Source: Candidatus Paracaedimonas acanthamoebae
Lineage (GTDB): Bacteria > Pseudomonadota > Alphaproteobacteria > Caedimonadales > Caedimonadaceae
Assembly: GCA_000743035.1 (NCBI GenBank)
Contig: CP008936.1
Location: forward strand, 480,001-512,000
DNA: 32,000 nt
Direction: 5' to 3'
Made by a program: the position numbers and the translations under genes. Of the stretch, positions 401 to 30,209 are shown piece by piece (the stretch's first letter is position 1; the number at the start of each line of letters is the position of its first letter). Below the pieces are notes generated by a model. It was not told where the DNA came from, did not search any database, and saw only the letters and a list, made by a program, of their open reading frames with translations.

Positions 401-598
401 TAAATTTAATCATGCATATTTTTATATATCTTCACATTTTATAGTTCTAAAAAGTAGTTTTCACTACTCAACTATTAAAGCCCGAATGAGGTGTAAAGCT
501 CCCAAATTTAGTACCAGGGGGTCGTGTAGTTTTCCGTGTTTTTTATGAATAAACTATATTCATTAGGCGTCATATTTTTTTGATCTTGCTACAAAAAT

Positions 599-1474: not shown

Positions 1475-1522
1475 GAATTCGTACCTTTGCCTCGGGGTTC
1501 GGAGAAGATGGCAACTGCTTTC

Positions 1523-2887: not shown

Positions 2888-2890
2888 CAC

Positions 2891-3120
2891 TTACCTCTTC
2901 TCCTTGTTTATCTATAGAATCAAAGAGCAGGGTAACGAATAAATCACTTTCCTAAACGGGGTTTGTACCTCCAATGCCGGGTTCGTTGTACTCCCTGGAC
3001 CATGTTTTTTAACGGGGTAATCCACCAATAAGCAGACGGCCGCTCTCTTTGATAGCTCAACTTTAGCAGTTAACGAGCGCGAGTTTCTATTTATTAGGGA
3101 AAGGGGTGCCATTTAGGTGG
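2891..3120 (-). ncRNA. Candidate bridge (seek) RNA in the IS110 left end, copy L
   Basis: Mirror of 27311-27540; see that feature and its finding. Confidence 0.4.
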
Positions 3121-3389
3121 TTTTTTAAGATATCTCGCTCCTGGCGAACAAGATAAAGCTCCCGCTTAAGCGCTCTTAATTCTTCCTCAACAACATGGCC
3201 ACTGCCAGGAAAACTTCTCTCTCCCTCACGCCGGTATTGTTTAATCCAGTGCCCTAAACTGGCACGCGAAATCCCTAAATCTAAAGCGATCTTCTCAATG
3301 CTCTTGTCATTACTCAAATAAACTTTAACCGCATTAATTTTAAATTCTTTATCGTATTTCTGGGTCATGTTCTCTCCTTTCAATAACAT
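3087..3389 (-). CDS. IS3-family OrfA (HTH) with its 3' end replaced by IS110 sequence
   Basis: 100 aa with an HTH (IEKIALDLGISRASLGHWIKQY) and a leucine-zipper-like tail. The last roughly 10 codons (NHLNGTPFPNK) read into the IS110 left end. Confidence 0.85.
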   Translation of the reverse strand: MLLKGENMTQKYDKEFKINAVKVYLSNDKSIEKIALDLGISRASLGHWIKQYRREGERSFPGSGHVVEEELRALKRELYLVRQERDILKNHLNGTPFPNK

Positions 3390-3434
3390 TAACCCATCTC
3401 GGTTCCTTGTGTCCGCTTTATTGTAGCAAGATCA

Positions 3435-3790
3435 TTCTTGATAAGATCTATAAAACGATCATAATGGACAAGCCTAGGGAATAAATGGCGATGATAACGA
3501 CATAAGTCCAGATAAAAGTATTTAAAACAGGCCATTCCAGATTGATGATAAGCAATTAGAATTGTGAGAACTTCAGATAATGTTAAATGCCCTTCTCTGC
3601 GGCGCCTTATCGAATGGTCAGATAGTAATTGCTTCTTATACCAAGGCTCAAAGCCTTTACAAAAGTTATCGACACAATAAAACAATTTATCGTAATTTAT
3701 CACCATTGAGGTAGCTCCCTATTTTTTCAAATCGAGTTTACCTCAATACCCCCAATACTTTAACTATTATTCCTTATCCACAGTTCGGGT
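3435..3790 (-). pseudogene. IS982-family transposase, N-terminal remnant plus left end
   Basis: MVINYDKLFYCVDNFCKGFEPWYKKQLL...LTLSEVLTILIAYHQSG...FKYFY is a typical IS982 N-terminus. It is cut at 3434/3435 by the IS3 end, so the tail of ORF 3389-3706 is IS3-derived. Confidence 0.7.
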
Positions 3791-4033
3791 TAACATACAA
3801 TACACTCGATAAACCCTCTTATGATTCCATCTATGGCCCATTTGCCGAATCTTTATAAATAATTTCTTAAAACCATAACGAGGATACCTTTCTGTCAGCT
3901 CTAATAAAGTGCTCATAACATCCTCATCTTTTTTATCTGCCGGCTGATAACGATAAACTGAACGACTCAACTTAAGAGCATAGCAACTCCGTCGATAACT
4001 AAGTCCATGTGTTGACACCAGATAATCAACCAT
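3791..4033 (-). pseudogene. IS3-family OrfB, 5' fragment
   Basis: MVDYLVSTHGLSYRRSCYALKLSRSVYRYQP...YPRYGFKKL...WNHKRVYRVY is a typical OrfB N-terminus. No DDE core follows. Confidence 0.75.
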
Positions 4034-4053
4034 CTCTCTCTTCTCAGCCGGCT

Positions 4054-4320
4054 TTAGAGCTTTTTTTCAATCAAATCCTTCAAAGCTCTTGCCTCAAGTG
4101 AAAGATCAGCAAACATTCGTTTCAAACGGTTGTTTTCTTCTTCCAAGAATTTGAGACGCTTCATATCCAGGGCCTCCATCCCTCCATATTTTGAGCGCCA
4201 TTTAAAATACGTGGATTCAGCAATCCCATGTTCCCGACAAACATCTTTTACTAATCGACCTGATTCAACAGATCTCAAAATCCCTATAATCTGATATTCA
4301 CTAAAGCGTTCTTTCTTCAT
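4054..4320 (-). CDS. IS3-family OrfA (HTH)
   Basis: MKKERFSEYQIIGILRS...GIAESTYFKWRSKYGG plus a leucine zipper. The ATG at 4320 is preceded by AAGGAGG. The ORF track extends upstream to 4368. Confidence 0.85.
   Translation of the reverse strand: MKKERFSEYQIIGILRSVESGRLVKDVCREHGIAESTYFKWRSKYGGMEALDMKRLKFLEEENNRLKRMFADLSLEARALKDLIEKKL
4060..4066 (-). promoter_or_regulatory. A AAA AAG programmed -1 frameshift heptamer of the IS2-like remnant
   Basis: The orfA frame reads att gaa aaa aag ctc taa. The -1 frame continues KKALKPAEKREMVDYL into orfB'. Confidence 0.7.
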
Positions 4321-4713
4321 TCCGTTCCTCCTTTTCTTTAACCATACCTTCTCGGAGAAACTACACAACTTAATGGAGCTATTTTAGGGGAGAATTACAG
4401 AGGGTTAAAATAACTCTTATAAAAATTAATCTATTTCAGTTTAATCCATCTGATTCTGTAAAAAGATAAATAAAAACAAGAGGATTAGTTTATTACTTTA
4501 AGACCAAATTTAATGATGAGGAAGTGGTTCAATTCCTGTAGAGCTCACCAAGGGGTTTCTTAACCAGCAAGAGATTTTCCTTTCGTCATAAAGATTAATA
4601 TCCAGTTTGCTGATTATGTCTGACAATTGGCACACAACATATTATATTTTTTAAGTGTCTCAAAAAATTTCATTTAACTTTGAAATATATTTCTCTTTGG
4701 AAAACTTTGTTTA

Positions 4714-7700
4714 CTAAACCGAAGGAGGCTCACATTTAACAATAGCTCGAACATCACTCTGCTTGTCACTAACCATTTTTGCTAAATGCTTGATTGTTGG
4801 ATTAGAGAAGCATTCACTAATTGAGAGTGAAACTCCATAATGTGCTTTAATACGTAGAGTTACTTTATTAAGTAGTAAGGAGTGTCCTCCAAGTTTGAAG
4901 AAATTATCTGTAGTTCCTACTTGTTTTACATTAAGAATCTCAGACCAAATCTTGCATATTTCTTCTTCAACCTTATTTTTAGGTTCCTCGCTTGCAACTG
5001 CATCTATTAATTCTTGCTGTTGTATAGTCGGTAGCTTCTTTCGATCAATCTTACCATTAACTGTAAGAGGGAAGTTATCAACTTGTATGAATTTTGTTGG
5101 GACCATGTATTCGGGGACTTTTTGTATAAGATAATTCTTTATGTTTACAAATAGTTCTCTATTTGATTTTTCACCTTTGGCTTCATCACGTATCTTTATG
5201 TAGGCAATTAAACTACACTCACCTGCGGCATTAGTATTGCAAATGACTGCAGCTTTTTCTATTAACATGTTGAGATTAAGCAGACTCTCGATTTCACCTA
5301 GCTCAACTCGAAACCCCCTTATTTTTATTTGATGGTCGCGGCGTCCTAAGTATTCAATTGTACCAGTACTGCAGTATCTTGCAAGATCCCCTGATCTATA
5401 CATTTTACTGCTCTTATTGCAATCTGTACCAGTTTCTGAGGAAAATGGGTCAGTAATAAACCTTTGTTCTGTCAATTCAGGTCTGTTTAAATAACCATCA
5501 CTAACCCCATCTCCTCCTACATACATCTCTCCTATAACTCCTTCAGGTACTGGGGTGAGGTTGTCATCAAGAATATAAATTTTAGTATTATCTAATGGAG
5601 CACCAACTGGAGAATAAGGAGATCTTGAGTCTATGTGGTTTTTAGTAAGTTTTAAATAGGTTGAGTAAATAGTAGTTTCGGAAATGCCGTACATATTTGT
5701 CAGTTGTTGGTTTTTATCATGATAAGCATTCCACCACCACTCAAGCTTAGAAACTTCCAACTTTTCTCCGGCAAGAATAATATGCCGCAATTTGAGGTTT
5801 TTACGGAAATTAGATTGATTTGCAAGTATGAGAGAATCAAATGATGAGGGGGTTTGTGTTAAGATGGAAACTTCCTCTTTTTCAAGAAAGCTTAGAAATG
5901 CTTGAGTATCTTTTTTGATCTCGGTAGGTACAATAACTAGTTCCCGGCCATAAAGCAAAGCTCCCCATATTTCCCATACAGATAGGTCGAAAGTAAACGA
6001 GTGGAAAAGGCAAAAAGTATCTTCCTTATTAAAGTTGAATAAATGCTCACATGCACGGAATAAAGAAATCACATTTTTATGGCTAATAAGGGAGCCTTTA
6101 GGAAGGCCAGTTGACCCAGAAGTATAAATAATATAGGCGGTGTTATCTAGGGAAAATGATAATTCTAGATTTTCCAATGGCTGTTTTTCTATTTCTTCGT
6201 TATTGCCATCTAGGGTTATAATGATATTTTCATATGATTCATATCGATCTTTAAAAGAATTATTTGTTAATAATAATTCTACATTAGCGTCTTTGAGTAT
6301 AGAATCTATCCTATCCAGAGGATAAGAAGGATCTATAGGAACGTAGGCTGCTCCTGTTTTCATAACCGCTATCATAGCAATAATCAATTCAATAGAACTT
6401 TCTAAGCTTATAGCAATAAGTTTGCCTTTATTTGCTCTTTTCGTAATAAGGTAATGTGCGAGCTGATTTGATCGCTCGTTTAGCTGGCTATATGTTAAGG
6501 TACGACCATTAAAACGAAGACAATTCCTGTGAGGATATTTAGAAACTTGGTCTTCAAATATCTTAATTATATTTTCTTCCGGAAGATTAAAAGATAAATA
6601 CTCATGATTAAACTTCTGAAGAATATTATTTTTCTCTTCCTGTGAGAGTATAGGTAATATACTTATCTTACTACCAACATTATCAACAATACTGTAAAGA
6701 AGAGTTATGTAACTCTGCAGAAGATTAGAAATAGTATATTCCTTGAATAAATCTTCTGCATATTCTGCTTGAATTTCTAGCTGAGATTCTTGTTCTTGTA
6801 TAAAGATGGTTAAATCAAACTTAGAATAACTTCTTCCTTCCTCAGTTATTTTTGTCTTTATACCATCAAGATGTAAGAATTTATTCCAATCTTCTCTTGC
6901 AGTAAATAAAAGCTGGTATAAGGGGTTGCGATTTAATACACGGGGGATATTAATTCTCTTCACAAGCATATCGAAAGGAACATCTTGGTTGTCCTGAGCT
7001 GATGATAGAGTTTCTTTTAATGCTTCTAATACTTCTAAGAAGCTCATTTCTTCGCGTAAGACTAGGCGCAGAGGCAGCGTATTCATGAGCAAGCCAATTA
7101 ATTTGTCAGTGCCAGCATATACTCTACCTGAAACTGGCGTTCCTATGATTAAATCATTCTGATGTGTATAACGATAAACCAATACATAGAATGCTGAGAG
7201 TAAAACAGTGAATAAACTTGTATGATATTTTTCTGAGAGCTTTCTTAGTTGATTGGTTAGTTGCTGAGGAATAGCATGAGTAATAGTTTTACCACTATAC
7301 GATAAGGTTTCTGGTCGCTCAAAATCAGGCGATAAAGTAGTCAGATCTGCAGCCTGAGAGAGATGCTCTTGCCAAAAGCTAATTTGCCGTTCCATGGTGC
7401 TTGGTTTGAGAAATTGCCTAAACCAAGACGAATAGGCTTTATAAGTAAATGATGCTTCTGGAAAAGAGAGGGAAGGAACTTTTCTCAGCTTATTATATGT
7501 TTCAGAGAGCTCATCCAGAAATAAAGTTATTGATTGCCCATCAAGAATAATATGATGAAAATTTAGAACTAAAATATGATGATTTTCATCTATTTTAATA
7601 AGGCCTGCTTTAAAAAGAAATGGCTTAGTTAAATCAAACGTATGAAAAATAGTTTCATTAATTAAGCGCTCAAGAATTTTACTTTTAGAGCTACCATTAT

Positions 7701-9966
7701 AACTTGAAATATCATCATAGAAAATATCAATTGGTTCAATTGAGCTAAAATCTTGTATAAGTAATCCTTCGATCTCTTTAAAAAAAGTCCGTAAAGCGTC
7801 ATGCTTGATAACAAGAGCTTTTATAGAAGAAATTAAAGCTTCAGAGTTTAAATCACCAAATAAATCAATGCTGAAAGGTAAGTTGTATACTCTTTTTTCT
7901 GAGAGAAAAGAATCTAAAAACCACAAACGTTGCTGTGAAAAATTGGCTGGTATAGAATTAGAACCTTGAGGCTGGTTTGCTAAATTAAGCTCTTGTTCTA
8001 CCCAGTTTTCAATAAGATAGTTAAGTGTTTGAGCTATTGAATTATTAGAAGAGAATACAATAGAAGATGGAATTGTTTGCAATAAATCACGATGGATTCT
8101 TGCTAAGAATAAAGTCAACTTTACAGAATTGAATCCTAGACTAGTGAGACTCTTTTCCAAATCTTGTTGATTAAGAGAGATACCCAAAATATGTGAAGCT
8201 AACTGAAGAAGGTAGCTGCTCAACAATTTTTTTCTAGTTTCTAAAGTACAGGTAAAAACATTAGAAGATATCTGAGGTTCAGGTATAAGCATATCACTGC
8301 TAAAGCCGTCTTCTTGCGCCACAATAGAAAGCTTATGCTCTAAATAAAGTTTTTTACATAATTGTCTTTGTACCTTCCCGCTAGAAGTTTTTGGGAGGCT
8401 TCTCTCACGAAGTAAAACAATTTTATAAGGCACTATTTCATGATTTTCATAGAGTTGCTTTCTAATTAAATTATAAAGCTTATTAAAATCTCGAAAATGG
8501 CGATGGACTTCTTGGACAACAATTATGTTCGCTTCATGCCCATCATTTTCTATAGAGAAAACAGCGCAACTATTGCTCAATAAGGCAGTATGGCTATTTG
8601 AGGTTGTTTCTTCAATATCTTGGGGGTATATGTTTTGGCCATTTAAGATAATTAAGTCTTTCAACCGACCGCTAACATAAAGATTATTATCAGCGTCTAA
8701 AAAGCCGAGATCTCCTGTTTTTAAGTATTGCTTATTATTTTCTACTAGAGTAGCAAAGAAAGTCTCTTTTGTGATCTCGGGTTTTCCCCAATAGCCTGCG
8801 GCGATGCTTGATCCATATAGCCAGATCTCTCCTTCTTCATAAGGTTGGCATATTGCTCTAGTGGTAGGATTTACGATAATTAATTCATGATCTTTAGCAG
8901 CTTGGCCACAATTTATAAGCCCCTGTGGATGTTCATCTGTTTTATGTAGACTAATTTTCTTTTTAGATGCAACAAAAAGTGTTGATTCTGCAAGGCCATA
9001 GGCAGGATATAAAGAGAAAGGGTTAAATCCTGCTGTAGCAAAATTTTGGATAAAGTTCTCCATAACTTTATTACTTATAGGTTCTGCACCGTTAAAGACA
9101 ACTTTGAGAGAACTTAAATCTAATTCTTTTATTTGCGAGTCAGTGATAACTTTTGAGCATAAATCAAAAGAAAAATTTGGTGCTCCTGTTATAGTAGCTT
9201 TTTGCTCCGTTATTATTTTTAGCCATTTAAAGGGTTCTTGCATGAATGATTGGGGTGACATGAAGCAGCATTTAAATCCACAAAATAAAGGAAATAATGT
9301 ACCGAATATAAGCCCCATATCATGGTAAGAAGGTAACCAGCTAACCATAACATGTTCATCCAAAGGTATTTCATCCTGAATAACATCCTTAATAAGCACA
9401 AGGTTTGTCATAATATTTTCGTGTGAAATAATAACCCCTTTTGGTTCTCCTGTCGAACCTGAGGTATATTGTAAGAAGGCTATTTTATTTTGTCTGTCTA
9501 AGGTTAGAAGATTGGCTTCGGTATCAATGAAATTCAAAAAACTAACATCCTCAATAAATATCAAAACTTCACCACGCGTTGTTAACAAACTAGTATCAAA
9601 ATTATTGAGAGATTTCTGAGTAATAATAAATTTGGCTGCGCATGAGTTTTGGATAGCTTGTACTCGTGTTGCTCGTTTGTTATTAGTTGGTAAATATACG
9701 GGGACAGCAACTGCATTTGCGGCGAGGCAGGCTAGGAAAGAAATAATATAGTCTATACCCTGAGGCAATAAGATTAAAACTCTTTCATTTGCGCAATTAT
9801 TATTTTTAAGCTTGTTTGCTAATATTGAAGTTCTTTCATAAAGCTCTTTATATGTAATGGTTTGTATTATGTTATCATGGTTATAAAAAACATATGCTTC
9901 TCTTCGAGGTGTATGTTTCGCATGATGGTGAAGACTCTCTAAAATTGTTTTTTTTAATGTATTCAT
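4714..9966 (-). CDS. NRPS lipo-initiation module: FAAL - ACP - C - A - PCP (1,750 aa), no TE, R or E domain
   Basis: FAAL motifs YTSGSTGEPKG, WLPSYHDMGL, GAPNF, KTGDLGF, GRLKDLIILNGQNIYPQDIE (aa about 1-550). Carrier 1 LGFNS (Ser614). C domain QQRLWFL and HHIILDGQS (aa 804-812). A domain YTSGSTGLPKG, NMYGISETT, GEMYVGGDGVSDGY, YRSGDL, GRRDHQIKIRGFRVELGEIE, NGKIDRK. Carrier 2 LGGHS. Confidence 0.93.
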   Translation of the reverse strand: MNTLKKTILESLHHHAKHTPRREAYVFYNHDNIIQTITYKELYERTSILANKLKNNNCANERVLILLPQGIDYIISFLACLAANAVAVPVYLPTNNKRATRVQAIQNSCAAKFIITQKSLNNFDTSLLTTRGEVLIFIEDVSFLNFIDTEANLLTLDRQNKIAFLQYTSGSTGEPKGVIISHENIMTNLVLIKDVIQDEIPLDEHVMVSWLPSYHDMGLIFGTLFPLFCGFKCCFMSPQSFMQEPFKWLKIITEQKATITGAPNFSFDLCSKVITDSQIKELDLSSLKVVFNGAEPISNKVMENFIQNFATAGFNPFSLYPAYGLAESTLFVASKKKISLHKTDEHPQGLINCGQAAKDHELIIVNPTTRAICQPYEEGEIWLYGSSIAAGYWGKPEITKETFFATLVENNKQYLKTGDLGFLDADNNLYVSGRLKDLIILNGQNIYPQDIEETTSNSHTALLSNSCAVFSIENDGHEANIIVVQEVHRHFRDFNKLYNLIRKQLYENHEIVPYKIVLLRERSLPKTSSGKVQRQLCKKLYLEHKLSIVAQEDGFSSDMLIPEPQISSNVFTCTLETRKKLLSSYLLQLASHILGISLNQQDLEKSLTSLGFNSVKLTLFLARIHRDLLQTIPSSIVFSSNNSIAQTLNYLIENWVEQELNLANQPQGSNSIPANFSQQRLWFLDSFLSEKRVYNLPFSIDLFGDLNSEALISSIKALVIKHDALRTFFKEIEGLLIQDFSSIEPIDIFYDDISSYNGSSKSKILERLINETIFHTFDLTKPFLFKAGLIKIDENHHILVLNFHHIILDGQSITLFLDELSETYNKLRKVPSLSFPEASFTYKAYSSWFRQFLKPSTMERQISFWQEHLSQAADLTTLSPDFERPETLSYSGKTITHAIPQQLTNQLRKLSEKYHTSLFTVLLSAFYVLVYRYTHQNDLIIGTPVSGRVYAGTDKLIGLLMNTLPLRLVLREEMSFLEVLEALKETLSSAQDNQDVPFDMLVKRINIPRVLNRNPLYQLLFTAREDWNKFLHLDGIKTKITEEGRSYSKFDLTIFIQEQESQLEIQAEYAEDLFKEYTISNLLQSYITLLYSIVDNVGSKISILPILSQEEKNNILQKFNHEYLSFNLPEENIIKIFEDQVSKYPHRNCLRFNGRTLTYSQLNERSNQLAHYLITKRANKGKLIAISLESSIELIIAMIAVMKTGAAYVPIDPSYPLDRIDSILKDANVELLLTNNSFKDRYESYENIIITLDGNNEEIEKQPLENLELSFSLDNTAYIIYTSGSTGLPKGSLISHKNVISLFRACEHLFNFNKEDTFCLFHSFTFDLSVWEIWGALLYGRELVIVPTEIKKDTQAFLSFLEKEEVSILTQTPSSFDSLILANQSNFRKNLKLRHIILAGEKLEVSKLEWWWNAYHDKNQQLTNMYGISETTIYSTYLKLTKNHIDSRSPYSPVGAPLDNTKIYILDDNLTPVPEGVIGEMYVGGDGVSDGYLNRPELTEQRFITDPFSSETGTDCNKSSKMYRSGDLARYCSTGTIEYLGRRDHQIKIRGFRVELGEIESLLNLNMLIEKAAVICNTNAAGECSLIAYIKIRDEAKGEKSNRELFVNIKNYLIQKVPEYMVPTKFIQVDNFPLTVNGKIDRKKLPTIQQQELIDAVASEEPKNKVEEEICKIWSEILNVKQVGTTDNFFKLGGHSLLLNKVTLRIKAHYGVSLSISECFSNPTIKHLAKMVSDKQSDVRAIVKCEPPSV

Positions 9967-11733: not shown

Positions 11734-12537
11734 GTGGCGTTTAAGCGGAAAGAACAACTTTCAATAGCAAAAGAAAGCTTTATCGAATTTTTTAAATCTC
11801 TTATGTCAGCAATTTTAGTTATTGGTGCTATTCAAACTGTTGCATATCAGAATTTTCATATACCTTCCGGATCAATGAAACCTAACTTACTCGTTGGAGA
11901 CTTTCTCTTTGTTTCGAAGTTTGCTTATGGTTACAGTCATTATTCTCTTCCTTTTAGTCCCCCACTCTTTAAAGGACGTATTTTGGCCCAAGAGCCTAAA
12001 AGGGGAGATGTTGTGGTTTTTAGGCCTCACTTTGACACTAAAACGGATTTTATCAAAAGGTTGATAGGGCTTCCTGGTGATCGTATTCAAATGCGCGATG
12101 GCATCCTTTATATCAATGATAAAGAGTGTCCCCTGGAAAAAGTACAAGAAGAATTTTCAGACCATTTATATATTAATTATTTTCCTGCAAATATTGAAGA
12201 GCGCGTTTATGATGCGGAAGGAGTGAAAATTCCTCAGTACATAGAAACGCTTCCTAATGGTGTTAAGCATCTCATTATCAAAGAAAAGCCGTTTGGTGCA
12301 GGGCGGTTTGATAATACTGATGTATTTATTGTTCCTGAGAATCATTACTTCGTGATGGGCGATAATCGAGATGGCTCTGATGACAGTCGTAACATAAACC
12401 GGTTAGGATGCGTTGCGCAAGAAAATCTAATTGGCCGTGCTGAGCTAATTTATTTTTCTACTGAAGCTCAGTGGTGGGAAGTCTGGAAGTGGTTTACACA
12501 TTTGCGTTATGATAGACTTTTGAAATTTATTCGTTAA
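11734..12537 (+). CDS. lepB: Signal peptidase I (S26)
   Basis: PSGSMKPNL (Ser nucleophile), KRLIGLPGD (general-base Lys box) and GDNRDGSDDSR. Overall layout is like alphaproteobacterial LepB. GTG start after GGAGG. Confidence 0.9.
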   Translation: MAFKRKEQLSIAKESFIEFFKSLMSAILVIGAIQTVAYQNFHIPSGSMKPNLLVGDFLFVSKFAYGYSHYSLPFSPPLFKGRILAQEPKRGDVVVFRPHFDTKTDFIKRLIGLPGDRIQMRDGILYINDKECPLEKVQEEFSDHLYINYFPANIEERVYDAEGVKIPQYIETLPNGVKHLIIKEKPFGAGRFDNTDVFIVPENHYFVMGDNRDGSDDSRNINRLGCVAQENLIGRAELIYFSTEAQWWEVWKWFTHLRYDRLLKFIR

Positions 12538-12672: not shown

Positions 12673-13860
12673 TTATAGGTTGTCTTGGTTTGAAGTTAAC
12701 TTTTTAATCTTACCTCCAAAAAACTCTGTCGCTTGTCTTAAAGACTCATCAGCCAAGTGAGCATATCTCTGTGTAGTTGAAGCTTGGGTATGACCTAAGA
12801 GTTTGCCTACAATATGCAGGCTCAAACCGCTAGATACCAAATGTGAAGCATGGGTATGTCGTAAATCATGAATGCGAACATTTTCAAATTCAGCTTCTTT
12901 TATGACTTTTTTCCAAAAAGTTTTAATTTCTTGTAAGGGTTGTCCTTCAATTTTGCTTGGAAAAAGATATGGTGAATTTTCTTTCTTAAATTTCTTAATA
13001 TCGTGAAGAACATCAATGGTTTTTTCTGAAAGGGGCAAATATTCTTTCTTTTTTTGCTTTGTTATGTGTGATGGTTTTGTCCAAATGCCTTTTTCAAGAT
13101 CAAACTGGTCCCACGTAGCTTGAAGAACTTCTCCTTTTCTGGCGCCAGTAAGAAGTAAAAATTTGAAGACGTAAGTCGTGAGGTGATGATTATATTTGTT
13201 TAATATAGACCATAGTCGTTGCAATTCTGTATCATTAAGCCATCTGTCGCGTTTTTCTTCTTGATATTTCTCAATGTCTTGAGCTGGATTATCTTCGCGC
13301 CAACCCCATTCTTTAGCAAGGCTAAACATTTTACTTAATAAAGATCGTACTCGATTGGCGAGGTACGGTTTATTTTTTAAATCACGGTGTAATTTTTGAA
13401 GTTCATACGAGGTGATTGATTTGATACCTTGTTTTCCAAACTTGGGTAATATGATAGAGGAAATCATATGAATATCATCACTAACACTTTTAGTGCGTTT
13501 GTTTACTTTTGCATGTAATTCTAAATATTCTTTGGTAAGGTCAGTTACGGTAAATGCTATTTTTTTCTCTTTAATATTGGTGGCTGGGTCTTCACCTAAA
13601 CTGATTTTTAATGAAAGGTGTTTAGCTTTTTCGCGTGCTTCTTCAGCTGTTATATTGCCATGAACTCCTATTTTAATTTTATGAGTCTTATGGAATTCAT
13701 TACGATATTGAAAAAAATAAGTCTTACGTCCTGTAGGATAAATTCGTAAATTAAAGCCCGTAATTTCAGTATCCCACACAAAAAGACGTTTAGTAGAATG
13801 GGCTGTCGCCGCTTCAACAGCTCTCTTTGTGAGTTTTATCTTATTAATTGATTGCATCAT
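12673..13860 (-). CDS. Tyrosine recombinase, P4-type phage/island integrase
   Basis: N-terminal arm-binding-type domain (LTKRAVEAA...FVWDTEITGFNLRIYPTGRKTYFFQYR). Catalytic TGARKGE, HDLRHTHAS and LGHTQASTTQRYAH. Confidence 0.9.
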   Translation of the reverse strand: MMQSINKIKLTKRAVEAATAHSTKRLFVWDTEITGFNLRIYPTGRKTYFFQYRNEFHKTHKIKIGVHGNITAEEAREKAKHLSLKISLGEDPATNIKEKKIAFTVTDLTKEYLELHAKVNKRTKSVSDDIHMISSIILPKFGKQGIKSITSYELQKLHRDLKNKPYLANRVRSLLSKMFSLAKEWGWREDNPAQDIEKYQEEKRDRWLNDTELQRLWSILNKYNHHLTTYVFKFLLLTGARKGEVLQATWDQFDLEKGIWTKPSHITKQKKKEYLPLSEKTIDVLHDIKKFKKENSPYLFPSKIEGQPLQEIKTFWKKVIKEAEFENVRIHDLRHTHASHLVSSGLSLHIVGKLLGHTQASTTQRYAHLADESLRQATEFFGGKIKKLTSNQDNL

Positions 13861-13939: not shown

Positions 13940-14051
13940 ATAAGATTAGATTGAGAGCAATTTTTATAAATTCAGAAAGAAGAATAAAAATTAAAAAATT
14001 AATAAAAACAATATAATAATTATATTAATATAGGTAGGTAGATATAAAAAC

Positions 14052-14103
14052 CTTCTGACTACGGATCAGAAGGTTAGGAGTTCGAATCTTCTCGGGCGCG
14101 CCA
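14052..14103 (+). tRNA. Orphan 3' half of tRNA-Arg(ACG): anticodon arm, variable loop, T arm, 3' acceptor strand and CCA. No 5' half.
   Basis: Stem TCTGA/TCAGA with loop CTACGGA (anticodon ACG). T arm AGGAG-TTCGAAT-CTTCT. Then CGGGCGC-G-CCA. The matching 5' acceptor strand GCGCCCG and the D arm are absent upstream, where the sequence is pure AT-rich spacer. Confidence 0.8.
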
Positions 14104-21332: not shown

Positions 21333-22736
21333 TTTGATACGCAGCCATAGGGGAATGAAAAAGAAGGTAACTGCTGCTCCTAAGCTAATTAAGCATAAAC
21401 TGTTAAAGAAGTTTGTGTAAAATCCTAGATTCTCTATACCTGCTGTATCCCCTTGAGAGGTAAGTGTCGCAAGCTTACCTGAAAAATACTGGGCTATTCC
21501 GATGGAAAAGTACCAGATCCCAACATAGAAAGAAGCATATTTTTTAGGCGCTATCTTAGTAATAGCAGACATAGCGGTAGGCATTATACATATCTCTCCA
21601 ATAACAAAACACATCAATGCTAAGATTAAAAACCAGGGAGACACTAAACCTTGTGTTGCTAAGCGAGTTGATATCCATAAAACAAGAAAGCCAATACTTA
21701 CCATACCAAGACCGGCACTCATTTTAGTAAAAATGGAGTATGAGATTTTATACTTTTTTAGGTAACGCCATAATAAAGCTAATATGAATCCTAGCATTAA
21801 ATTGAAAAGTGGATCAATGGCTTGGAAAAACGTTGTTGGAATAGTAGTGATGCCAATATTAGAGAATCCCTTGAGGGTGCGGTCTAGATAGTTTTCTGCA
21901 AATAAAACAAGGGAGTTACCAGATTGCTCATAAAGGATAAAGAATGAAACAGTGATCAGAATCACTAGACCAAAAACTTTAATATTTTTAGTCTGATTTT
22001 CTGCATGAAATAGGGTCGCTAATGCAACGAGGATACCACTTATTAAAATGAAACTGATAATAAAGGTTGGTTGGATAGTAGCGTAGTTGAAAAAGAAATA
22101 AACAATCGCAATAATAATAGGCACCGATAATAATTTCAAGAGATCTTGACCTAGTTTGGCTATGCTAAGCTTTATGTATTTGCCAAAGAAGCCTAAGAAA
22201 AACAGTGCCAAGCAATCTGCAATGAGCATCATAAGAAAAGAAACTTTCCAATTAAGACACTCTCCTAAAACCGCACACATCACAGTACCAAACAGGGTTG
22301 CCAAATTCATAAGGGCATAAAAGAAAGTGAATTGTGCATCTCGGTTGAGAGAGTCTTTACCAATTATTTGACTTAACAAGGGTAAGATTGAAGGACGGAC
22401 TAAACCGCGCCCAACAAGAGCAAAGCTTGCTCCTAGGAAAAAATAAGTAAAGTCTAAGTATAATAAAAGAGAGCCAATAGCTGAACATAAAAATCCTATA
22501 AAAATTGAATTTTCTTGCCCTAGGTATTTGTCAGAAATCCAACCCCCAACTAAGGGAGTCAAATAGGACAGCATCATTAAAGATCCATAGGTTGCAAAAG
22601 CATTTTGATTTGAATAAAGAAGCTCTTTCACAAGAAACAGGACAACCATAGAACGTAGGCCATTAAAAACAAATCGCTCAATAGCGGCTAATAGAGTGAT
22701 TAACGCAATATTCTTACCTCTAATGAGAGAGATCAT
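21327..22736 (-). CDS. POT/PTR2-family (MFS) proton-dependent oligopeptide transporter
   Basis: ERFVFNGLRSMVVLFL...LTPLVGGWISDKYLGQ signature and about 12-14 hydrophobic spans. ATG at 22736 (TTG at 22742 in the ORF track). It overlaps the upstream gene by 17-23 nt. Confidence 0.8.
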   Translation of the reverse strand: MISLIRGKNIALITLLAAIERFVFNGLRSMVVLFLVKELLYSNQNAFATYGSLMMLSYLTPLVGGWISDKYLGQENSIFIGFLCSAIGSLLLYLDFTYFFLGASFALVGRGLVRPSILPLLSQIIGKDSLNRDAQFTFFYALMNLATLFGTVMCAVLGECLNWKVSFLMMLIADCLALFFLGFFGKYIKLSIAKLGQDLLKLLSVPIIIAIVYFFFNYATIQPTFIISFILISGILVALATLFHAENQTKNIKVFGLVILITVSFFILYEQSGNSLVLFAENYLDRTLKGFSNIGITTIPTTFFQAIDPLFNLMLGFILALLWRYLKKYKISYSIFTKMSAGLGMVSIGFLVLWISTRLATQGLVSPWFLILALMCFVIGEICIMPTAMSAITKIAPKKYASFYVGIWYFSIGIAQYFSGKLATLTSQGDTAGIENLGFYTNFFNSLCLISLGAAVTFFFIPLWLRIKL

Positions 22737-24162
22737 TAGCAATATTCCTTATGCTTGGGGGCAATGTAATAGCAAAGATATGAAAAATTTCTTCAACCTG
22801 ACGCTTACTTATATTAAGCAGCCTTAGTCCATTTAAACTCAAATTTGATAAATCCTTAAACTGTTTCCAAATATCGGTAATTTGTAATAAATGCTTACAA
22901 AGAGGCGAGAGATCAAGAGAGTCACTACTTTTCTCTAAAGCTTTAGGAAAGTATAAAAGATGCATTGCAAGATTTTGTTGGAGTTGGTCTTCGATTTCTA
23001 AGGGTGTGTCCTTATTAAGATTTAAATGCTTTTCAAAACCAAAAATTCGGGCACATTGAAAACATACCATAGCAGATGGATGAGCCAAAAAATCTGGACT
23101 TTTAAGAAAGGAAATATAGCCTTCTTCAAGAGGTTGCTTAAAATTGTCAATTTTAAGAAAGAGGAGAGCAATAAAGTTTTTGAAACACGTAAAATCTTCT
23201 TCTGGTATGGGGAAGTGAGAATGGATAAAGTTAGAAGAAAATACTTCCACCTCGTTCAAGAATTGCTCCATTGTAATACCAAAATAAGGATCAAGTTTAT
23301 AAGCCTTGTTTGGCTGTTCTAGTAAATAGCCGTGAGACCTATGAATAAGCTCAGTATTAATGCCATATCTGTTCCAAGCGCCAAGAATTTGTCTCCAATG
23401 GTGTTCTTGGCGATTACCAATAACATATATAATTTTGTCTGCTTCTTGCTTATAAATGCGCTCATAAATGGCGGCCATATCTATGCTTGAGTAAGCGAGA
23501 AATTCATCATTTCCTTTTAAGAAAACAGAGTAAGAGTTTCCTAAAGGAACCATGATATTGCCCTGATGCGTTTCAATAAGATTTTTAGCTTTAAACAGAG
23601 ATATTACTGTTTCTATATGAGGGATGTAGCGACTTTCACCACTGTATTGATCGAAGCTAACATGTAAAAAGTCGAGCATTTTTTGAATTTCGGAAAGGGT
23701 AATGGCGGATATTTTATCGCGCAAAGAAACATAATCACCTTGAGCTTGCTGAAGAGTAATTGCTTCTTGACGAACTTTAGCATCTAATTTTTGATCTTTT
23801 GCTGCGCGTAAAGCAACATCCTTCTGAATTTCGAATATTAGCTTAGGATTAGCTTGTAAGCTCTCAACCACTTGATGAAGATTTTGAGAGCGCTCTTTTA
23901 AACCATACAATAAACAGCCCATTTGAGGTCCGTGATCGCCATAGTGAATATCGCCGATGGTCGTGAAGCCGCTAAATTTTAGAAGCCTTTTTAGACTTTC
24001 GCCAAGAATTGTTGTCCTTAAGTGCCCTAGATGCATAGGTTTAGCAATGTTAGGCCCACAGTAATCGATGATTATCTTTTTATCTGTTTTGCCTTTAGTA
24101 AAAAATTGCTGTGTTCCTTGCTTTTCTAACAGCTCAAGCTTTTCAATAAGGTTATCCCCCAT
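22720..24162 (-). CDS. Arginyl-tRNA synthetase paralogue lacking the N-terminal domain (480 aa)
   Basis: ArgRS-type catalytic core: IIIDYCGPNIAKPMHLGHLRTTILGESLKRLL, HYGDHGPQMG, FDQYSGESRY, YSSIDMAAIYER, IIYVIGNRQEHHW. The HIGH box starts at residue 44, versus about 120-130 in canonical ArgRS. Confidence 0.75.
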   Translation of the reverse strand: MGDNLIEKLELLEKQGTQQFFTKGKTDKKIIIDYCGPNIAKPMHLGHLRTTILGESLKRLLKFSGFTTIGDIHYGDHGPQMGCLLYGLKERSQNLHQVVESLQANPKLIFEIQKDVALRAAKDQKLDAKVRQEAITLQQAQGDYVSLRDKISAITLSEIQKMLDFLHVSFDQYSGESRYIPHIETVISLFKAKNLIETHQGNIMVPLGNSYSVFLKGNDEFLAYSSIDMAAIYERIYKQEADKIIYVIGNRQEHHWRQILGAWNRYGINTELIHRSHGYLLEQPNKAYKLDPYFGITMEQFLNEVEVFSSNFIHSHFPIPEEDFTCFKNFIALLFLKIDNFKQPLEEGYISFLKSPDFLAHPSAMVCFQCARIFGFEKHLNLNKDTPLEIEDQLQQNLAMHLLYFPKALEKSSDSLDLSPLCKHLLQITDIWKQFKDLSNLSLNGLRLLNISKRQVEEIFHIFAITLPPSIRNIANDLSH

Positions 24163-26483: not shown

Positions 26484-26996
26484 ATGAGTCTCAGCATAAG
26501 GTTCCATGGATCTTATATTGCTTTGTTAGCAGAATTATTGCTACATTCCCTATCTTTTAGCTCTGGCATTCATAAAGATCTTAGGGAATATGAGTGGGAA
26601 GATATCTATCAAATAGGACTAGTCTCAAACGCTGCTTATTATTACTTTAATTGTGCAAACGATGTTAAAACTAGCATGGAAGAGTTAGAGCAAGCTGGTT
26701 GGGCATGTAAATTGATAGGAGATGGTCCTTTTCATGTCATACGAGCGGAGTATGGTCCTCTTGTTGTTTTAGGCTTTAAGGGCACAACTAAGACAGAAGA
26801 TTATGCCTCCGATTTAAATGCAATCAGATTAACTGTCACAGAGAGTGAACAACAAGGGGTCGCCCATCGCGGAATTTATTCTTATACAAAAAAATTACCT
26901 GCTTCTATTAATGCTCTTTTTAATCCAGATGATGGTGATGAGCTTCTTGTTCTTGCTGGGCACAGTCTAGGTGGAGCAGTAGCGCAATTAAAGGGA
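26484..26996 (+). pseudogene. Class-3 (fungal-type) lipase, N-terminal part truncated by the IS3 end
   Basis: VVLGFKGTTKTEDYASDL, GVAHRGIY and the nucleophile elbow AGHSLGGAVAQ. The IS terminal TG begins at 26997, 7 codons after the Ser. Confidence 0.75.
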
Positions 26997-27041
26997 TGAT
27001 CTTGCTACAATAAAGCGGACACAAGGAACCGAGATGGGTTA

Positions 27042-27344
27042 ATGTTATTGAAAGGAGAGAACATGACCCAGAAATACGATAAAGAATTTAAAATTAATGC
27101 GGTTAAAGTTTATTTGAGTAATGACAAGAGCATTGAGAAGATCGCTTTAGATTTAGGGATTTCGCGTGCCAGTTTAGGGCACTGGATTAAACAATACCGG
27201 CGTGAGGGAGAGAGAAGTTTTCCTGGCAGTGGCCATGTTGTTGAGGAAGAATTAAGAGCGCTTAAGCGGGAGCTTTATCTTGTTCGCCAGGAGCGAGATA
27301 TCTTAAAAAACCACCTAAATGGCACCCCTTTCCCTAATAAATAG
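27042..27344 (+). CDS. IS3-family OrfA (HTH) with its 3' end replaced by IS110 sequence
   Basis: Identical to 3087-3389. It diverges from the IS3 consensus after ...RQERDILK at the A-run at 27305-27310. Confidence 0.85.
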   Translation: MLLKGENMTQKYDKEFKINAVKVYLSNDKSIEKIALDLGISRASLGHWIKQYRREGERSFPGSGHVVEEELRALKRELYLVRQERDILKNHLNGTPFPNK

Positions 27345-27540
27345 AAACTCGCGCTCGTTAACTGCTAAAGTTGAGCTATCAAAGAGAGCGGCCGTCTGCT
27401 TATTGGTGGATTACCCCGTTAAAAAACATGGTCCAGGGAGTACAACGAACCCGGCATTGGAGGTACAAACCCCGTTTAGGAAAGTGATTTATTCGTTACC
27501 CTGCTCTTTGATTCTATAGATAAACAAGGAGAAGAGGTAA
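27311..27540 (+). ncRNA. Candidate bridge (seek) RNA in the IS110 left end
   Basis: 230-nt relatively GC-rich non-coding end 5' of the recombinase gene. Two homologous modules (ATTGGTGGA..ACCCCGTT at 27402-27420 and ATTGGAGGT..ACCCCGTT at 27456-27476) are each followed by a junction-matching string. Confidence 0.4.
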
Positions 27541-27543
27541 GTG

Positions 27544-28908
27544 ATGACTCAATCTAACAGACAATCCAGTATGCCAATTATTCATCAAAATGCTGCTGGG
27601 ATTGATATTGGTGCTAAGTTTCACGTTGTTGCTGTAGGGAGTGATAAAGCAAAAGAACCAGTTCGTACGTTTCAAAGTTTTACCACAGATTTACATGCTA
27701 TGGCAAAATGGCTTAAAAGCTGTGAGGTCACCAGCATTGCTATGGAATCCACAGGTATTTATTGGATTCCTGCTTTTGAGATCTTAGAGAATTATGGTTT
27801 TGAGGTATTTTTAGTTAATCCACGAGAAGCTAAAAATGTTCCTGGACGTAAAACAGACGTCAATGATGCGCAATGGATTCAACGGTTACATCAATTTGGT
27901 TTGTTACGTGCTAGCTTCAGACCAGAAAAACAAATTACTGTGCTACGTGCTTATATTAGACAACGTGAACGTATGCTTGAATTCAGAGCCTCTCATATCC
28001 AGCATATGCAAAAAGCTTTAATGCAAATGAACTTACAGTTGCATCATGTCGTATCGGATATAACGGGAGCCACAGGCATGAAGATCATTCGTGCGATTAT
28101 GAATGGTGAACGTTGCCCTGCTGTATTAGCAGAACATAGAGACATACGTTGTAAGGAATCCATTAAAACTATTGAGGAATCCTTAAAGGGTAATTATCAA
28201 GAAGAGCATTTGTTTTCTTTAACTCAAGCTGTTGAATTATTCGATTATTACACACAAAAAATTAATGAGTGTGATCGTCGAATAGAAGAGACATTAAGCT
28301 TGCTTGGAAAAGATAATAAGTTGCCTGATCAACCTCTACCCAAAGCCAGGCATCGCACTAAACAACCTAATAGCTTAAGCTTTGATGTAAGAGCATCCCT
28401 TTACCAAGCATTAGGAATGGACTTAACACAAATACACGGTGTTGGACCTTCATTAGCCTTAAAATTAATATCAGAATGTGGCACTGATATGTCTCGCTGG
28501 CCGAGCAGCAAGCACTTTACTTCTTGGCTATGTCTTTCTCCAGGGAATAAGGTATCAGGAGGGAAAGTATTATCATCACGAACACGGCGTTCCTCAAGTC
28601 GTGCGGCAGCAGCATTAAGATTGGCTGCTGTAACAATTGGAAAGACAAATACGGCTCTTGGTGCGTTTTATAGACGACTCTCGGCTCGCATTGGTAAATC
28701 AAAGGCAATTACTGCAACAGCTAGAAAAATGGCAGTATTATTTTTTAATGCTCTGCGTTATGGAATGCAATATGTTGATCCAGGTGCCAATTACTATGAG
28801 GCACGATATCAAAAGCGGGTTCTTGATAACTTATCAAAGCGAGCTGCTGCTTTAGGTTATATATTGCAAGAGAATAAAATGCAGGACTTGGTACAGGGAG
28901 TTTCTTAG
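27544..28908 (+). CDS. IS110-family DEDD transposase/recombinase
   Basis: Identical to the copy L protein. The stop TAG at 28906-28908 is 2 nt from the element end. Confidence 0.92.
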   Translation: MTQSNRQSSMPIIHQNAAGIDIGAKFHVVAVGSDKAKEPVRTFQSFTTDLHAMAKWLKSCEVTSIAMESTGIYWIPAFEILENYGFEVFLVNPREAKNVPGRKTDVNDAQWIQRLHQFGLLRASFRPEKQITVLRAYIRQRERMLEFRASHIQHMQKALMQMNLQLHHVVSDITGATGMKIIRAIMNGERCPAVLAEHRDIRCKESIKTIEESLKGNYQEEHLFSLTQAVELFDYYTQKINECDRRIEETLSLLGKDNKLPDQPLPKARHRTKQPNSLSFDVRASLYQALGMDLTQIHGVGPSLALKLISECGTDMSRWPSSKHFTSWLCLSPGNKVSGGKVLSSRTRRSSSRAAAALRLAAVTIGKTNTALGAFYRRLSARIGKSKAITATARKMAVLFFNALRYGMQYVDPGANYYEARYQKRVLDNLSKRAAALGYILQENKMQDLVQGVS

Positions 28909-28956
28909 GAAAGCAGTTGCCATCTTCTCCGAACCCCGAGGCAAAGGTACGAATTC

Positions 28957-29832
28957 ATGAAGCATCATACCACTTTATTTTCCTTGGATCAGATGGCGCA
29001 AGTCTTAGGGGTTTCTCGCAGTGGGTATTACGATTTTATTAAAAGGAGTCCCAGCAAGAGAGAACTGGAGAACACTGAGACTGTTAAAAGAATGAGGACT
29101 ATTTTTGAGGAGAGCCGAGAAACTTATGGCAGTCCTCGGATCCATGCAGAACTTTGTGCTCAGGGAACTTTTTGTTCTCGAGTTAAAGTCGCTCGATTGA
29201 TGCAGAAGAATGATATCCAAGCCAAGATGTATAGGAAGTTTGTTAAAACAACAAAACGTTCAGAAAATATCACTCGTCCAACCCAGGATCTCGTTCAGCA
29301 GAATTTTTATTCTCCTCTTCCTAATAGAATTTGGGCCGCAGATATTACTTTTATTGCCATCAATAGAACCTGGGCTTATCTGGCTATTATTCTTGATCTA
29401 TTCTCTCGAAAAGTGGTGGGAATGGCTTTGAGTGATCACATGAGAAGTTCTTTAATTTTAGCAGCACTTAATCAAGCTCTCTTATTAAGGAGACCTCCTT
29501 CAGGGCTTATTCATCATTCTGATATGGGGAGCCAATATACAAGCAATAACCTTTATGAAATAGCTCAAACTCATGGAATAAAACTGAGTCATGGAAAAAC
29601 AGGATGTGCTTATGACAATGCTGCAATGGAGAGCTTCTTTCATACGCTTAAAACAGAGCATGTCTATTTTAAGAACTATAAAACTTTAGAAGAAGCAAAA
29701 ACCGATATCTTTGAATACATATTCACATTTTATAACTCTAAAAGGAGGCACTCGACACTCAACTATCAAAGTCCAAATCAGTGGGAATACAATCATTACA
29801 AAAATCAAACCATCTCAGTTCACAATGTCTAA
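28957..29832 (+). CDS. IS3-family transposase OrfB (DDE/rve core)
   Basis: Identical to 599-1474. Its ATG overlaps the reconstructed orfA stop (ATGA). Confidence 0.95.
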   Translation: MKHHTTLFSLDQMAQVLGVSRSGYYDFIKRSPSKRELENTETVKRMRTIFEESRETYGSPRIHAELCAQGTFCSRVKVARLMQKNDIQAKMYRKFVKTTKRSENITRPTQDLVQQNFYSPLPNRIWAADITFIAINRTWAYLAIILDLFSRKVVGMALSDHMRSSLILAALNQALLLRRPPSGLIHHSDMGSQYTSNNLYEIAQTHGIKLSHGKTGCAYDNAAMESFFHTLKTEHVYFKNYKTLEEAKTDIFEYIFTFYNSKRRHSTLNYQSPNQWEYNHYKNQTISVHNV

Positions 29833-29850
29833 ATTTTTGTAGCAAGATCA

Positions 29851-30209
29851 CTCATCCCCAGCCCATAGAGCCCTAAGATTTTATTATCCAAAGAAGCATT
29901 TAAAACAGTCTGGCGCTTCTTCACAATTTGAGGAAAAGCTACCTTCGCGATCTCTTGGCGTCTCAAGCTCAAACGATCCCACAGGGTTTTGCTCTTCCCA
30001 TTCCGCCGATTCTGATTATCAGGCTCCTCAAGGCAAGCTGCCATATGAGAAGTCATCTCGCCTTCCAGAGCTGCTTCTAAAAACTCCTTTATTAAAGACG
30101 TGAGAATACCATCTTTCCCAACAAGACTCTTACCTGCTTTTAAATCAGAAATCGCTTGATTCTTAAAATCTTCAAAGTTAAATGAAGTCTCTTTCTTCTC
30201 TACTCACAT
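29851..30209 (-). pseudogene. IS256-family (mutator-type) transposase, N-terminal remnant
   Basis: FNFEDFKNQAISDLKAGKSLVGKDGILTSLIKEFLEAALEGEMTSHM...NRRNGKSKT...PQIVKKRQT...LDNKILGLYGLGMS. TGA at codon 2. The canonical GSFELETPRDREGSF segment lies in another frame. The gene is cut at 29850/29851 by the IS3 end. Confidence 0.75.

Follow-up and report, generated by a model that had tools for sequence, protein, structure and literature searches.

Organization of the locus

The window analysed here is a stretch of 32,000 nucleotides (nt) from Candidatus Paracaedimonas acanthamoebae (GenBank assembly GCA_000743035.1, contig CP008936.1, positions 480,001 to 512,000 of the forward strand), in which an insertion sequence (IS) of the IS110 family lies within an IS of the IS3 family, between the transposase genes orfA and orfB of the latter. 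The resulting composite of 2,854 bp occurs as two inverted copies, at 581-3434 on the minus strand (copy A) and 26997-29850 on the plus strand (copy B), with a spacing of 23.5 kb. Both copies are 100% identical over 2,855 nt (581-3435 versus 26996-29850), IS3 parts included, and the coordinates of copy A were derived from those of copy B (x_A = 30431 - x_B). The features at the locus are:

26997-29850, plus strand: IS3-family host, copy B; 1,253 bp when the insert is excluded, with termini TGATCTTGCTACAA...TTGTAGCAAGATCA, encoding an HTH_Tnp_1 OrfA and an rve OrfB.
27063-27344, plus strand: truncated orfA of copy B, reading ...ERDILK and then the insert-encoded NHLNGTPFPNK*.
27304-27310, plus strand: left half of the split slippery site, comprising the last T of TTA and six A; the left copy of the AA core is 27309-27310.
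27311-28909, plus strand: IS110-family (IS110 group) element, copy B; 1,599 bp, CCACC...TTAGG.
27544-28908, plus strand: IS110-family recombinase gene, 454 amino acids from ATG, or 455 from an alternative GTG at 27541.
28910-28911, plus strand: right copy of the AA core, preceding the right target AGCAGTTGCC.
28957-29832, plus strand: orfB of copy B, encoding an rve integrase-type DDE domain and displaced to 1.6 kb from orfA.
581-3434, minus strand: IS3-family host, copy A, identical to copy B; orfA at 3087-3368 and orfB at 599-1474.
1522-3120, minus strand: IS110-family element, copy A; recombinase at 1523-2887.

A preliminary description of this DNA, made from the sequence alone, had proposed an IS110 element inside an IS3 element, and Pfam searches bear out both family assignments. 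The recombinase matches DEDD_Tnp_IS110 (PF01548, 1.2e-22, residues 19-163) and Transposase_20 (PF02371, 2.5e-13, residues 295-377), its residues D21, E68, D105 and D108 are invariant across 33 homologues, and it is 100% identical to a protein (P0001) annotated as an IS110 family transposase of Candidatus Paracaedibacter symbiosus, with thousands of relatives. For the host, OrfA corresponds to HTH_Tnp_1 (8e-15) and OrfB (28957-29832) to rve/HTH_21. The orfB gene occupies the -1 frame, and close to its end orfA carries a slippery heptamer in an A-run (T TAA AAA AAG / TTA AAA AAA GCA in the insert-free sequence); the host termini are 50-nt imperfect inverted repeats, 74% identical, of the form TGATC...GATCA (5'-TG...CA-3'). 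The truncated orfA now stops at the TAG of a conserved TAGAAAC motif inside the insert.

At the left junction (27297-27315) the sequence reads GAT ATC TTA AAA AA^CCACC, with the A-run at 27305-27310, and at the right junction (28905-28921) it reads TTAGG^AAAGCAGTTGCC, with TTAGG at 28905-28909 (carets mark insert boundaries, the register of which is ambiguous by 2 owing to the A-run). The junctions of the minus-strand copy A are the same, and thus, as first described, both copies carry one and the same insertion. The extent originally given needed a minor correction, with the insert running from 27311 to 28909 (1,599 bp) and the whole IS3 host from 26997 to 29850, while its location at the heptamer stood. 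Three independent short-read contigs (L001, L002 and L003) contain identical IS3/IS110 junctions, and in L001 and L002 the element is the same. Contig L001 ends exactly at two k = 31 branch points, which would fit the coexistence of empty and occupied IS3 copies in one sample.

The left end of the insert is non-coding over 233 nt (27311-27543), and its termini, CCACC... and ...TTAGG, bear no inverted repeat relation to each other. On the opposite side, the recombinase stop codon TAG lies within the terminal TTAGG, such that the right end stops 1 nt past the stop codon. A long left end, a short right end and a lack of terminal inverted repeats are characteristic of the IS110 group (PMC11208160). 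A short subterminal inverted repeat was also observed between the termini (27311-27320 and 28900-28909), in which CCTAA occupies bases 4-8 of the left end and recurs in the right end once this is reverse-complemented; it resembles the short subterminal inverted repeat described for IS110-group elements. Also, the second base of the left end is C in the window (CCACC, 27312) and T in L001 (CTACC, position 32) and in a relative 85% identical (L088), a polymorphism directly beside the core and within the right-donor segment.

Empty sites and the split frameshift heptamer

Removal of the insert together with one AA gives ATCTTAAAAAAAGCAGTTGCC, and this exact 21-mer, which the preliminary description had predicted for empty sites and on which it had staked its reading in advance, is present in three uninterrupted IS3 copies (L004, L093 and L094). 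The first of these, located by an OrfB scan of one genome per species, belongs to a Caedibacter sp. metagenome-assembled genome (MAG) with a 97% identical OrfB, contiguous orfA and orfB, and the site GATATCTTAAAAAAAGCAGTTGCC with seven A; the other two were located via protein matching the reconstructed OrfA. Searches with this reconstructed OrfA also returned many intact proteins of 98/105 amino acids, 92-99% identical and all ending in ...ERDILKKAVAIFSEPRGKGT(N/S)S, confirming that the predicted tail ILKKAVAIFSEPRGKGTNS is the true C-terminus of natural OrfA proteins.

In the seven-A sequence, translation in the zero frame terminates at a TGA that overlaps the orfB ATG (28957), and the -1 frame continues without a stop into OrfB, just as initially read. 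Together, these features identify the site as a slippery heptamer, A AAA AAA, and the three empty copies place the insertion point inside it, where it had originally been proposed. Occupied copies hold 6 + 3 = 9 A as against seven in empty copies, and hence the insertion amounts to the element plus a duplicated AA. The 2-bp core duplication first proposed on indirect grounds is therefore upheld: the dinucleotide AA is shared by both junctions, is the sole duplication, and is conserved in both the LTG (left target guide) and LDG (left donor guide) blocks described below.

Target sites across the lineage

Relatives of the element were sampled as the best 80 of at least 586 metagenome matches, with a few others added. 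The 80 metagenome loci have recombinases 60-68% identical to that of the window, and relatives overall span 60-88% identity and derive from soils, waters, MAGs and clinical plasmids. In most of them the raw flanks take the form ...GAxATC(T/C)TAAAAAA^C... on the left and ...TTAGG^AA(A/G)GCxGC... on the right, and the element occupies the same position in the same orientation. The uninterrupted site was rebuilt for 51 loci with both junctions resolved, and at 32 of these the AA core falls inside an A AAA AA(A/G) heptamer that shares its frame with the open reading frame (ORF) upstream. A typical rebuilt reading is ...ERDILK^KAAAYFAKES*, with an ORF of ~300 amino acids in the -1 frame. Consistent with IS3-family hosts, HTH_Tnp_1 (IS3 OrfA) was detected in 27 of 40 upstream ORFs and rve (IS3 OrfB) in 19 of 30 downstream ORFs. 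Two closer relatives, L090 (78% identical) and L091 (80%), also occupy IS3 sites, with A AAA AAG heptamers. Among the other targets are IS481/IS630-like genes (...IIEIQK^KVAxLLG), one TIR/NB-ARC gene and a small number of unclear sites.

The clade was also found in 221 PLSDB plasmids, mostly from clinical Enterobacteriaceae; the carriers are IncF-type and other plasmids of Citrobacter, Enterobacter, Klebsiella and Serratia. On the Citrobacter plasmid NZ_CP022697.1 (L092, 140.2-141.9 kb), for example, a clade member 68.6% identical lies in what is left of an IS3 orfA and is bordered at its right end by an IS66 element.

Host and guest do not diverge in step. The OrfA and OrfB of the relatives' hosts are only ~16-42% identical to those of the window, compared to 60-68% for the IS110 recombinases; IS110 elements that share 86-89% identity over 700 nt in pairwise comparison have flanks with just 55-65% identity; and the same IS3, at 97% OrfB identity, is empty in L004 and occupied in the window. 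Close IS110 relatives in divergent hosts indicate that the insertions were independent. Targeting of the frameshift windows of diverse IS3-family elements, together with some other A-run sites, is a trait of the lineage, with guides changing along with the site.

Among these relatives, five loci (L036, L041, L044, L071 and L073) have a rebuilt target one A/G short of an in-frame orfA tail (8 A versus 9 expected, or a lost T), which may reflect homopolymer decay after the host IS was disabled. Chimeric hosts were also observed. Between L020 and L024 the IS110 elements are 93% identical and the right flanks 95%, compared to only 62% for the left flanks, while L026 combines an IS3-like right flank with a non-IS3 left flank matching its own LTG exactly (TCTAGGAGC). 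These cases suggest recombination between IS110 copies at different sites.

A putative bridge RNA and its guides

Elements of the IS110 family encode bridge RNAs, the loops of which base-pair with target and donor DNA (PMC11208160). No Rfam family was found for the left end at the gathering threshold (whole window) or at E up to 10 (27200-27650), and a comparative alignment of our own, comprising 47 non-redundant left ends of relatives, was therefore built. Folded as a single sequence the left end is uninformative (z = -1.08), and its structure becomes visible only from the alignment. RNAalifold applied to the 47 sequences predicts two stem-loops, each with a large internal loop, and five helices in total. 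Helix cells are paired in 98.1% of cases versus 37-56% with slid partners, and 12 base pairs are changed on both sides versus 6.2 in shuffles. The predicted loops and guides, including the right target guide (RTG), are:

27390-27433, plus strand: target-binding loop; lower stem 27390-27394/27429-27433, RTG 27395-27402 (TCTGCTTA), hairpin 27404-27418, LTG 27419-27427 (TTAAAAAAC).
27436-27502, plus strand: donor-binding loop with lower stems and an upper stem; LDG 27475-27482 (TTTAGGAA), handshake position 27483 (A).
3004-3012, 3029-3036 and 2949-2956, minus strand: LTG, RTG and LDG of copy A, respectively.

The LTG is the 9-nt block after CCCCG, and the RTG the block after GGCCG, antisense to the core and right flank. 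The target loop has on one side TTAAAAAA followed by C, which repeats the left target and the AA core in sense orientation, and on the opposite side TCTGCT, antisense to the right target AGCAG. In the window the LTG TTAAAAAAC equals the left junction at nine of nine positions, while the RTG pairs with AGCAG and one core base (6/8). The second loop carries a conserved TTAGGAA (27476-27482), equal to the right end plus core and kept in all 47 sequences.

Across loci, the guides follow their flanks. The LTG matches the left flank at 356 of 405 positions against a null of 328.8 +/- 3.5, a value reached in 0 of 2000 permutations even with the junction position re-optimised as for the real pairing. 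For the RTG and right-target positions 1-6 (RT1-6), 125 of 228 positions agree versus 79.7 +/- 6.6 (0/5000 permutations), with RT1-3 matching in 28-32 of 38 loci. Furthermore, the base after the LDG core equals RT1 in 33 of 40 loci versus 23.7 +/- 1.7 (0/5000 permutations); in the window this base (A, 27483) is likewise the first right-target base. The base after the LTG core (C) is the first left-end base in all loci. Guides of this kind beside the core have been defined as handshake guides (PMC11208158). The covariation signal is carried by loci lacking a plain A-run flank, in which flank and guide change together:

L074 and L042: left flank CTCTCAAAC, LTG block TTCTCAAAC.
L015: left flank CTTTTGAAC, LTG block TTTTTGAAC.
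L008: left flank CTGGATAAC, LTG block TTGGATAAC.
L065: left flank and LTG block both CAAGAAAAC.
L079: left flank and LTG block both CTTAAAAAC.

An earlier candidate for the RTG, the 7-nt AACTGCT (27360-27366) antisense to AGCAGTT, was dropped; it lies in a variable apical region that is unaligned among relatives.

Interpretation and proposed mechanism

Based on the junctions, the empty sites and the covarying guides, the insert is very probably an IS110-group, bridge-RNA-guided recombinase element, with a guide RNA directed at the IS3 frameshift window. The earlier proposal that this element may specifically parasitise the IS finds support in a predicted bridge RNA encoding the site and in relatives lying in the frameshift windows of many IS3-family elements. 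In the mechanism we propose, a circular element with the junction TTAGG-AA-CCACC (in longer form GAGTTTCTTAGG-AA-CCACCTAAATGG) would be paired by the recombinase with the site TTAAAA-AA-AGCAG (in longer form TATCTTAAAAAAAGCAGTTGCC), and strand exchange at AA would leave AA on both sides and no other duplication. Orientation would be fixed, co-directional with orfA. Insertion would split the A AAA AAA heptamer such that the OrfAB fusion transposase of the IS3 host could no longer be produced in cis, the site would be regained upon precise excision, and the insert may be expressed by read-through from orfA. A multicopy, conserved, host-neutral and mobile landing site may also offer a selective advantage.

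The OrfAB transframe protein, made via -1 frameshifting, is the transposase of IS3-family elements (IS911, IS3, IS150). A split heptamer and a separation of 1.6 kb between the two genes would prevent its synthesis, and loss of autonomous IS3 transposition should follow from the established need for OrfAB. A more ambitious extension, which we put forward only tentatively, is that this IS110 lineage is a dedicated hyperparasite of IS3 elements. It would combine RNA-guided homing to the one string that IS3 elements can hardly change, since that string serves for slippery recoding and at the same time codes in two frames; a transposase switch-off that is reversible because precise excision restores the site; transcription from the promoter of the host IS, given that the guide imposes a co-directional orientation; and spread between genomes on IS3 copies mobilised in trans. 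The element would in effect be a natural RNA-guided 'transposon of transposons', also limiting the bacterium's IS3 load, and its reversed guide order (see below) would constitute a distinct bridge RNA architecture.

A number of observations weigh against a bridge RNA programmed for IS3 frameshift windows. The relatives are a sample of best matches and not a census, and about a third of them lie outside IS3 elements. The left target is a low-complexity A-run, as a result of which the majority of LTGs resemble one another and the covariation derives from a minority of loci. The core-binding positions of the window RTG are TA where TT is expected, and a column-by-position complementarity scan for the right donor guide gave only a diffuse, phylogenetic-looking signal. 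A search for promoters and terminators on the plus strand (26950-29000) returned nothing above chance, including no sigma-70-like promoter for the RNA. Lastly, the order of the guides is the reverse of that in IS621, which makes mechanistic extrapolation from IS621 indirect.

Alternative explanations

The strongest competing account concerns the two copies in the window, which may derive from one event, in which a 2.85-kb IS3::IS110 composite was duplicated (by an IS3 transposase acting in trans, or by segmental duplication or recombination), instead of from two RNA-guided hits. We regard this as a serious possibility that falls somewhat short of an even chance. The perfect identity of the copies extends through their IS3 parts, intact copies of the IS3 in related genomes could supply OrfAB, and the k-mer branch points that end contig L001 are those expected if empty and occupied copies coexist. 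However, site-specific insertion into two identical IS3 copies would look the same, neither copy has a 3-4 bp IS3 target duplication whether or not the inversion is undone, and relatives of the element clearly insert repeatedly and independently. IS3 transposases, moreover, act preferentially in cis.

It is also conceivable, if rather unlikely, that the lineage is not specialised for IS3 elements at all, and that an A-rich string of ~12 nt (TAAAAAA-AGC) is recognised for which IS3 slippery sites are merely the commonest location, making the association a by-product with no adaptive link. The 85% identical relative L088 lies at CCTAAAAAA^AGCAGTT with no IS3 OrfA (HTH_Tnp_1) ORF upstream, indicating that the sequence itself is what is recognised; relatives also occur in IS481/IS630-like genes, a TIR/NB-ARC gene and elsewhere; and, since recognition is by base pairing, sequence context cannot matter directly. 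Conversely, both guides match the conserved IS3 string (..ILKKA..: TTAAAAAA plus AGCxGC) across hosts of widely differing G+C content and IS3 subgroup, and the 32 of 51 cores within in-frame heptamers also speak for the IS3 window. Where the IS3 site varies (CTCTCAAA in L042 and L074), the guide follows while remaining within the IS3 window, which argues for retargeting within the same functional site and not for random drift. The 12-mer also has no other match in the window, even allowing one mismatch.

Had the element entered an ancestral IS3 just once, long ago, with host and guest diverging together thereafter, common descent would account for the like position and orientation of most relatives, yet such a history is highly improbable given the empty IS3 of L004, the closely related IS110 pairs in divergent hosts, the presence of the same IS110 type at non-IS3 sites (L010 versus L012) and the covariation of guides with flanks. 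Similarly, mis-assembly of repeats as the source of the nested structure or of the second copy, for which the perfect identity of long repeats would be typical (collapsed or copied repeats), can be set aside as very improbable, since all four outer flanks differ, identical junctions occur in three independent short-read assemblies and the nested arrangement recurs in dozens of unrelated contigs.

Relation to known systems

Taking the insert as a bridge-RNA-guided element of the IS110 group, its closest points of comparison are IS621 and further elements belonging to the group (PMC11208160, PMC11208158), with which it shares a recombinase of DEDD/RuvC-like and Tnp domains, a long left end with a two-loop RNA, sense and antisense guides including a 2-nt core common to target and donor, a handshake position beside the core, a lack of terminal inverted repeats and a core that is the only duplication. 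The two differ in core and target, these being CT and a repetitive extragenic palindromic (REP) sequence for IS621, and AA and an IS3 frameshift window for the element described here. Whereas IS621 has its loops ordered stem-LTG-hairpin-RTG (PMC11208158), the window element has RTG-hairpin-LTG and ?-hairpin-LDG, and its right end, unlike that of IS621, is essentially nil, the stop codon lying in the terminal TTAGG. The reversed order could amount to a reading of the sites on the opposite strand with respect to the gene, in which case the architecture, including the handshake, would map onto that of IS621. Bridge RNAs of the IS110 family have been reported to be diverse (PMC11208160); the order stem-LTG-hairpin-RTG is a feature of IS621 and not of the family.

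Certain members of the other subgroup of the superfamily share with the window element a site- and orientation-specific insertion into a conserved sequence of another mobile element, and are thus likewise mobile elements that exploit mobile elements. They differ in carrying the RNA in the right end, in having long subterminal repeats, and in using non-coding recombination or terminal sites as targets, whereas the target in the window is coding and is a recoding (programmed -1 frameshift) signal in the host transposase gene. Insertion into such a signal would directly abolish synthesis of the host transposase. The REP-targeting elements ISPpu9, ISPpu10 and ISPa11 (PMC12288879, bioRxiv 10.64898/2026.03.19.712850) likewise use a multicopy, conserved and host-neutral landing site; REPs are repeats of the host genome, whereas the repeat used here is a transposable element that moves between genomes. 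A non-canonical guide strand polarity has been reported for ISPpu10 (same sources). The host itself shares with the IS3 family (IS3, IS911, IS150 type) OrfA (HTH_Tnp_1) and OrfB (rve) in the 0 and -1 frames, the A-run heptamer, the overlap of orfA stop and orfB ATG, and TG...CA ends. It departs from the family in its heptamer (A AAA AAA instead of the more usual A AAA AAG), in having no visible target duplication and in being interrupted in both copies.

Known targets of IS110 bridge recombinases include REP sequences, attC sites and Tn21 ends. In full-text searches of the open literature and in the bridge RNA papers, which do not take in ISfinder, TnPedia or subscription journals, we found no description of IS110 elements at IS3 frameshift sites. 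We therefore provisionally regard the element as belonging to an unreported IS110-group lineage with a new target class and a permuted guide order. It sits in the programmed -1 frameshift signal that belongs to a different IS family, a preference common to a large, widespread lineage that reaches plasmids of clinical Enterobacteriaceae. If our interpretation is correct, it would provide a clear natural case of one transposable element being RNA-guided to parasitise and reversibly silence another, and would explain a class of 'split' IS3 annotations in genomes. It would also supply a natural set of bridge RNAs (AA core, A-rich targets, reversed guide order) for understanding or engineering recombinases, and would make it possible to test whether IS3 elements are vulnerable at their conserved recoding signals.

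Genomic surroundings

IS3-type target duplications of 3-4 bp are absent at both copies, the flanks being GGA/CTC for copy B and GAA/AAA for copy A, and are also absent from both after swapping the inner flanks to undo the inversion. The missing duplications point to later rearrangement and do not speak against assignment to the IS3 family; lacking in both copies even with the inversion undone, they indicate that the region has been repeatedly rearranged. On its left side, IS3 copy B cuts an ORF for a class-3 lipase (GHSLGG motif; 26484-26999, plus strand), and on its right side it abuts a transposase-like fragment (29829-30056, minus strand). Copy A cuts a transposase-like ORF (3389-3706, minus strand).

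The 23.5 kb between the two IS copies contains a non-ribosomal peptide synthetase module of 1,750 amino acids (4714-9966, minus strand; two AMP-binding domains, Condensation, PP-binding), as well as housekeeping genes for signal peptidase I (11734-12537) and arginyl-tRNA synthetase (ArgRS; 22720-24162). The presence of these housekeeping genes makes a composite transposon bounded by the two IS copies unlikely, there being no obvious one.

A full-length match to the Rfam family isrN (RF01396; 57.1 bits, E = 6.5e-10) was found at 3913-4055 on the plus strand, inside a fragmented transposase-like region (minus-strand ORFs 3389-3706, 3767-4033 and 4054-4368) interrupted by IS3 copy A. As isrN is an Hfq-binding small RNA of Salmonella, its occurrence in an alphaproteobacterial amoeba symbiont is unexpected, and the Rfam family may in reality belong to an IS. 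Lastly, a phage-type tyrosine integrase (Phage_integrase, Arm-DNA-bind_3; 12673-13860, minus strand) adjoins a weak tRNA match (14034-14093, plus strand; 30.4 bits), an arrangement suggestive of an integrative element located at a tRNA gene.

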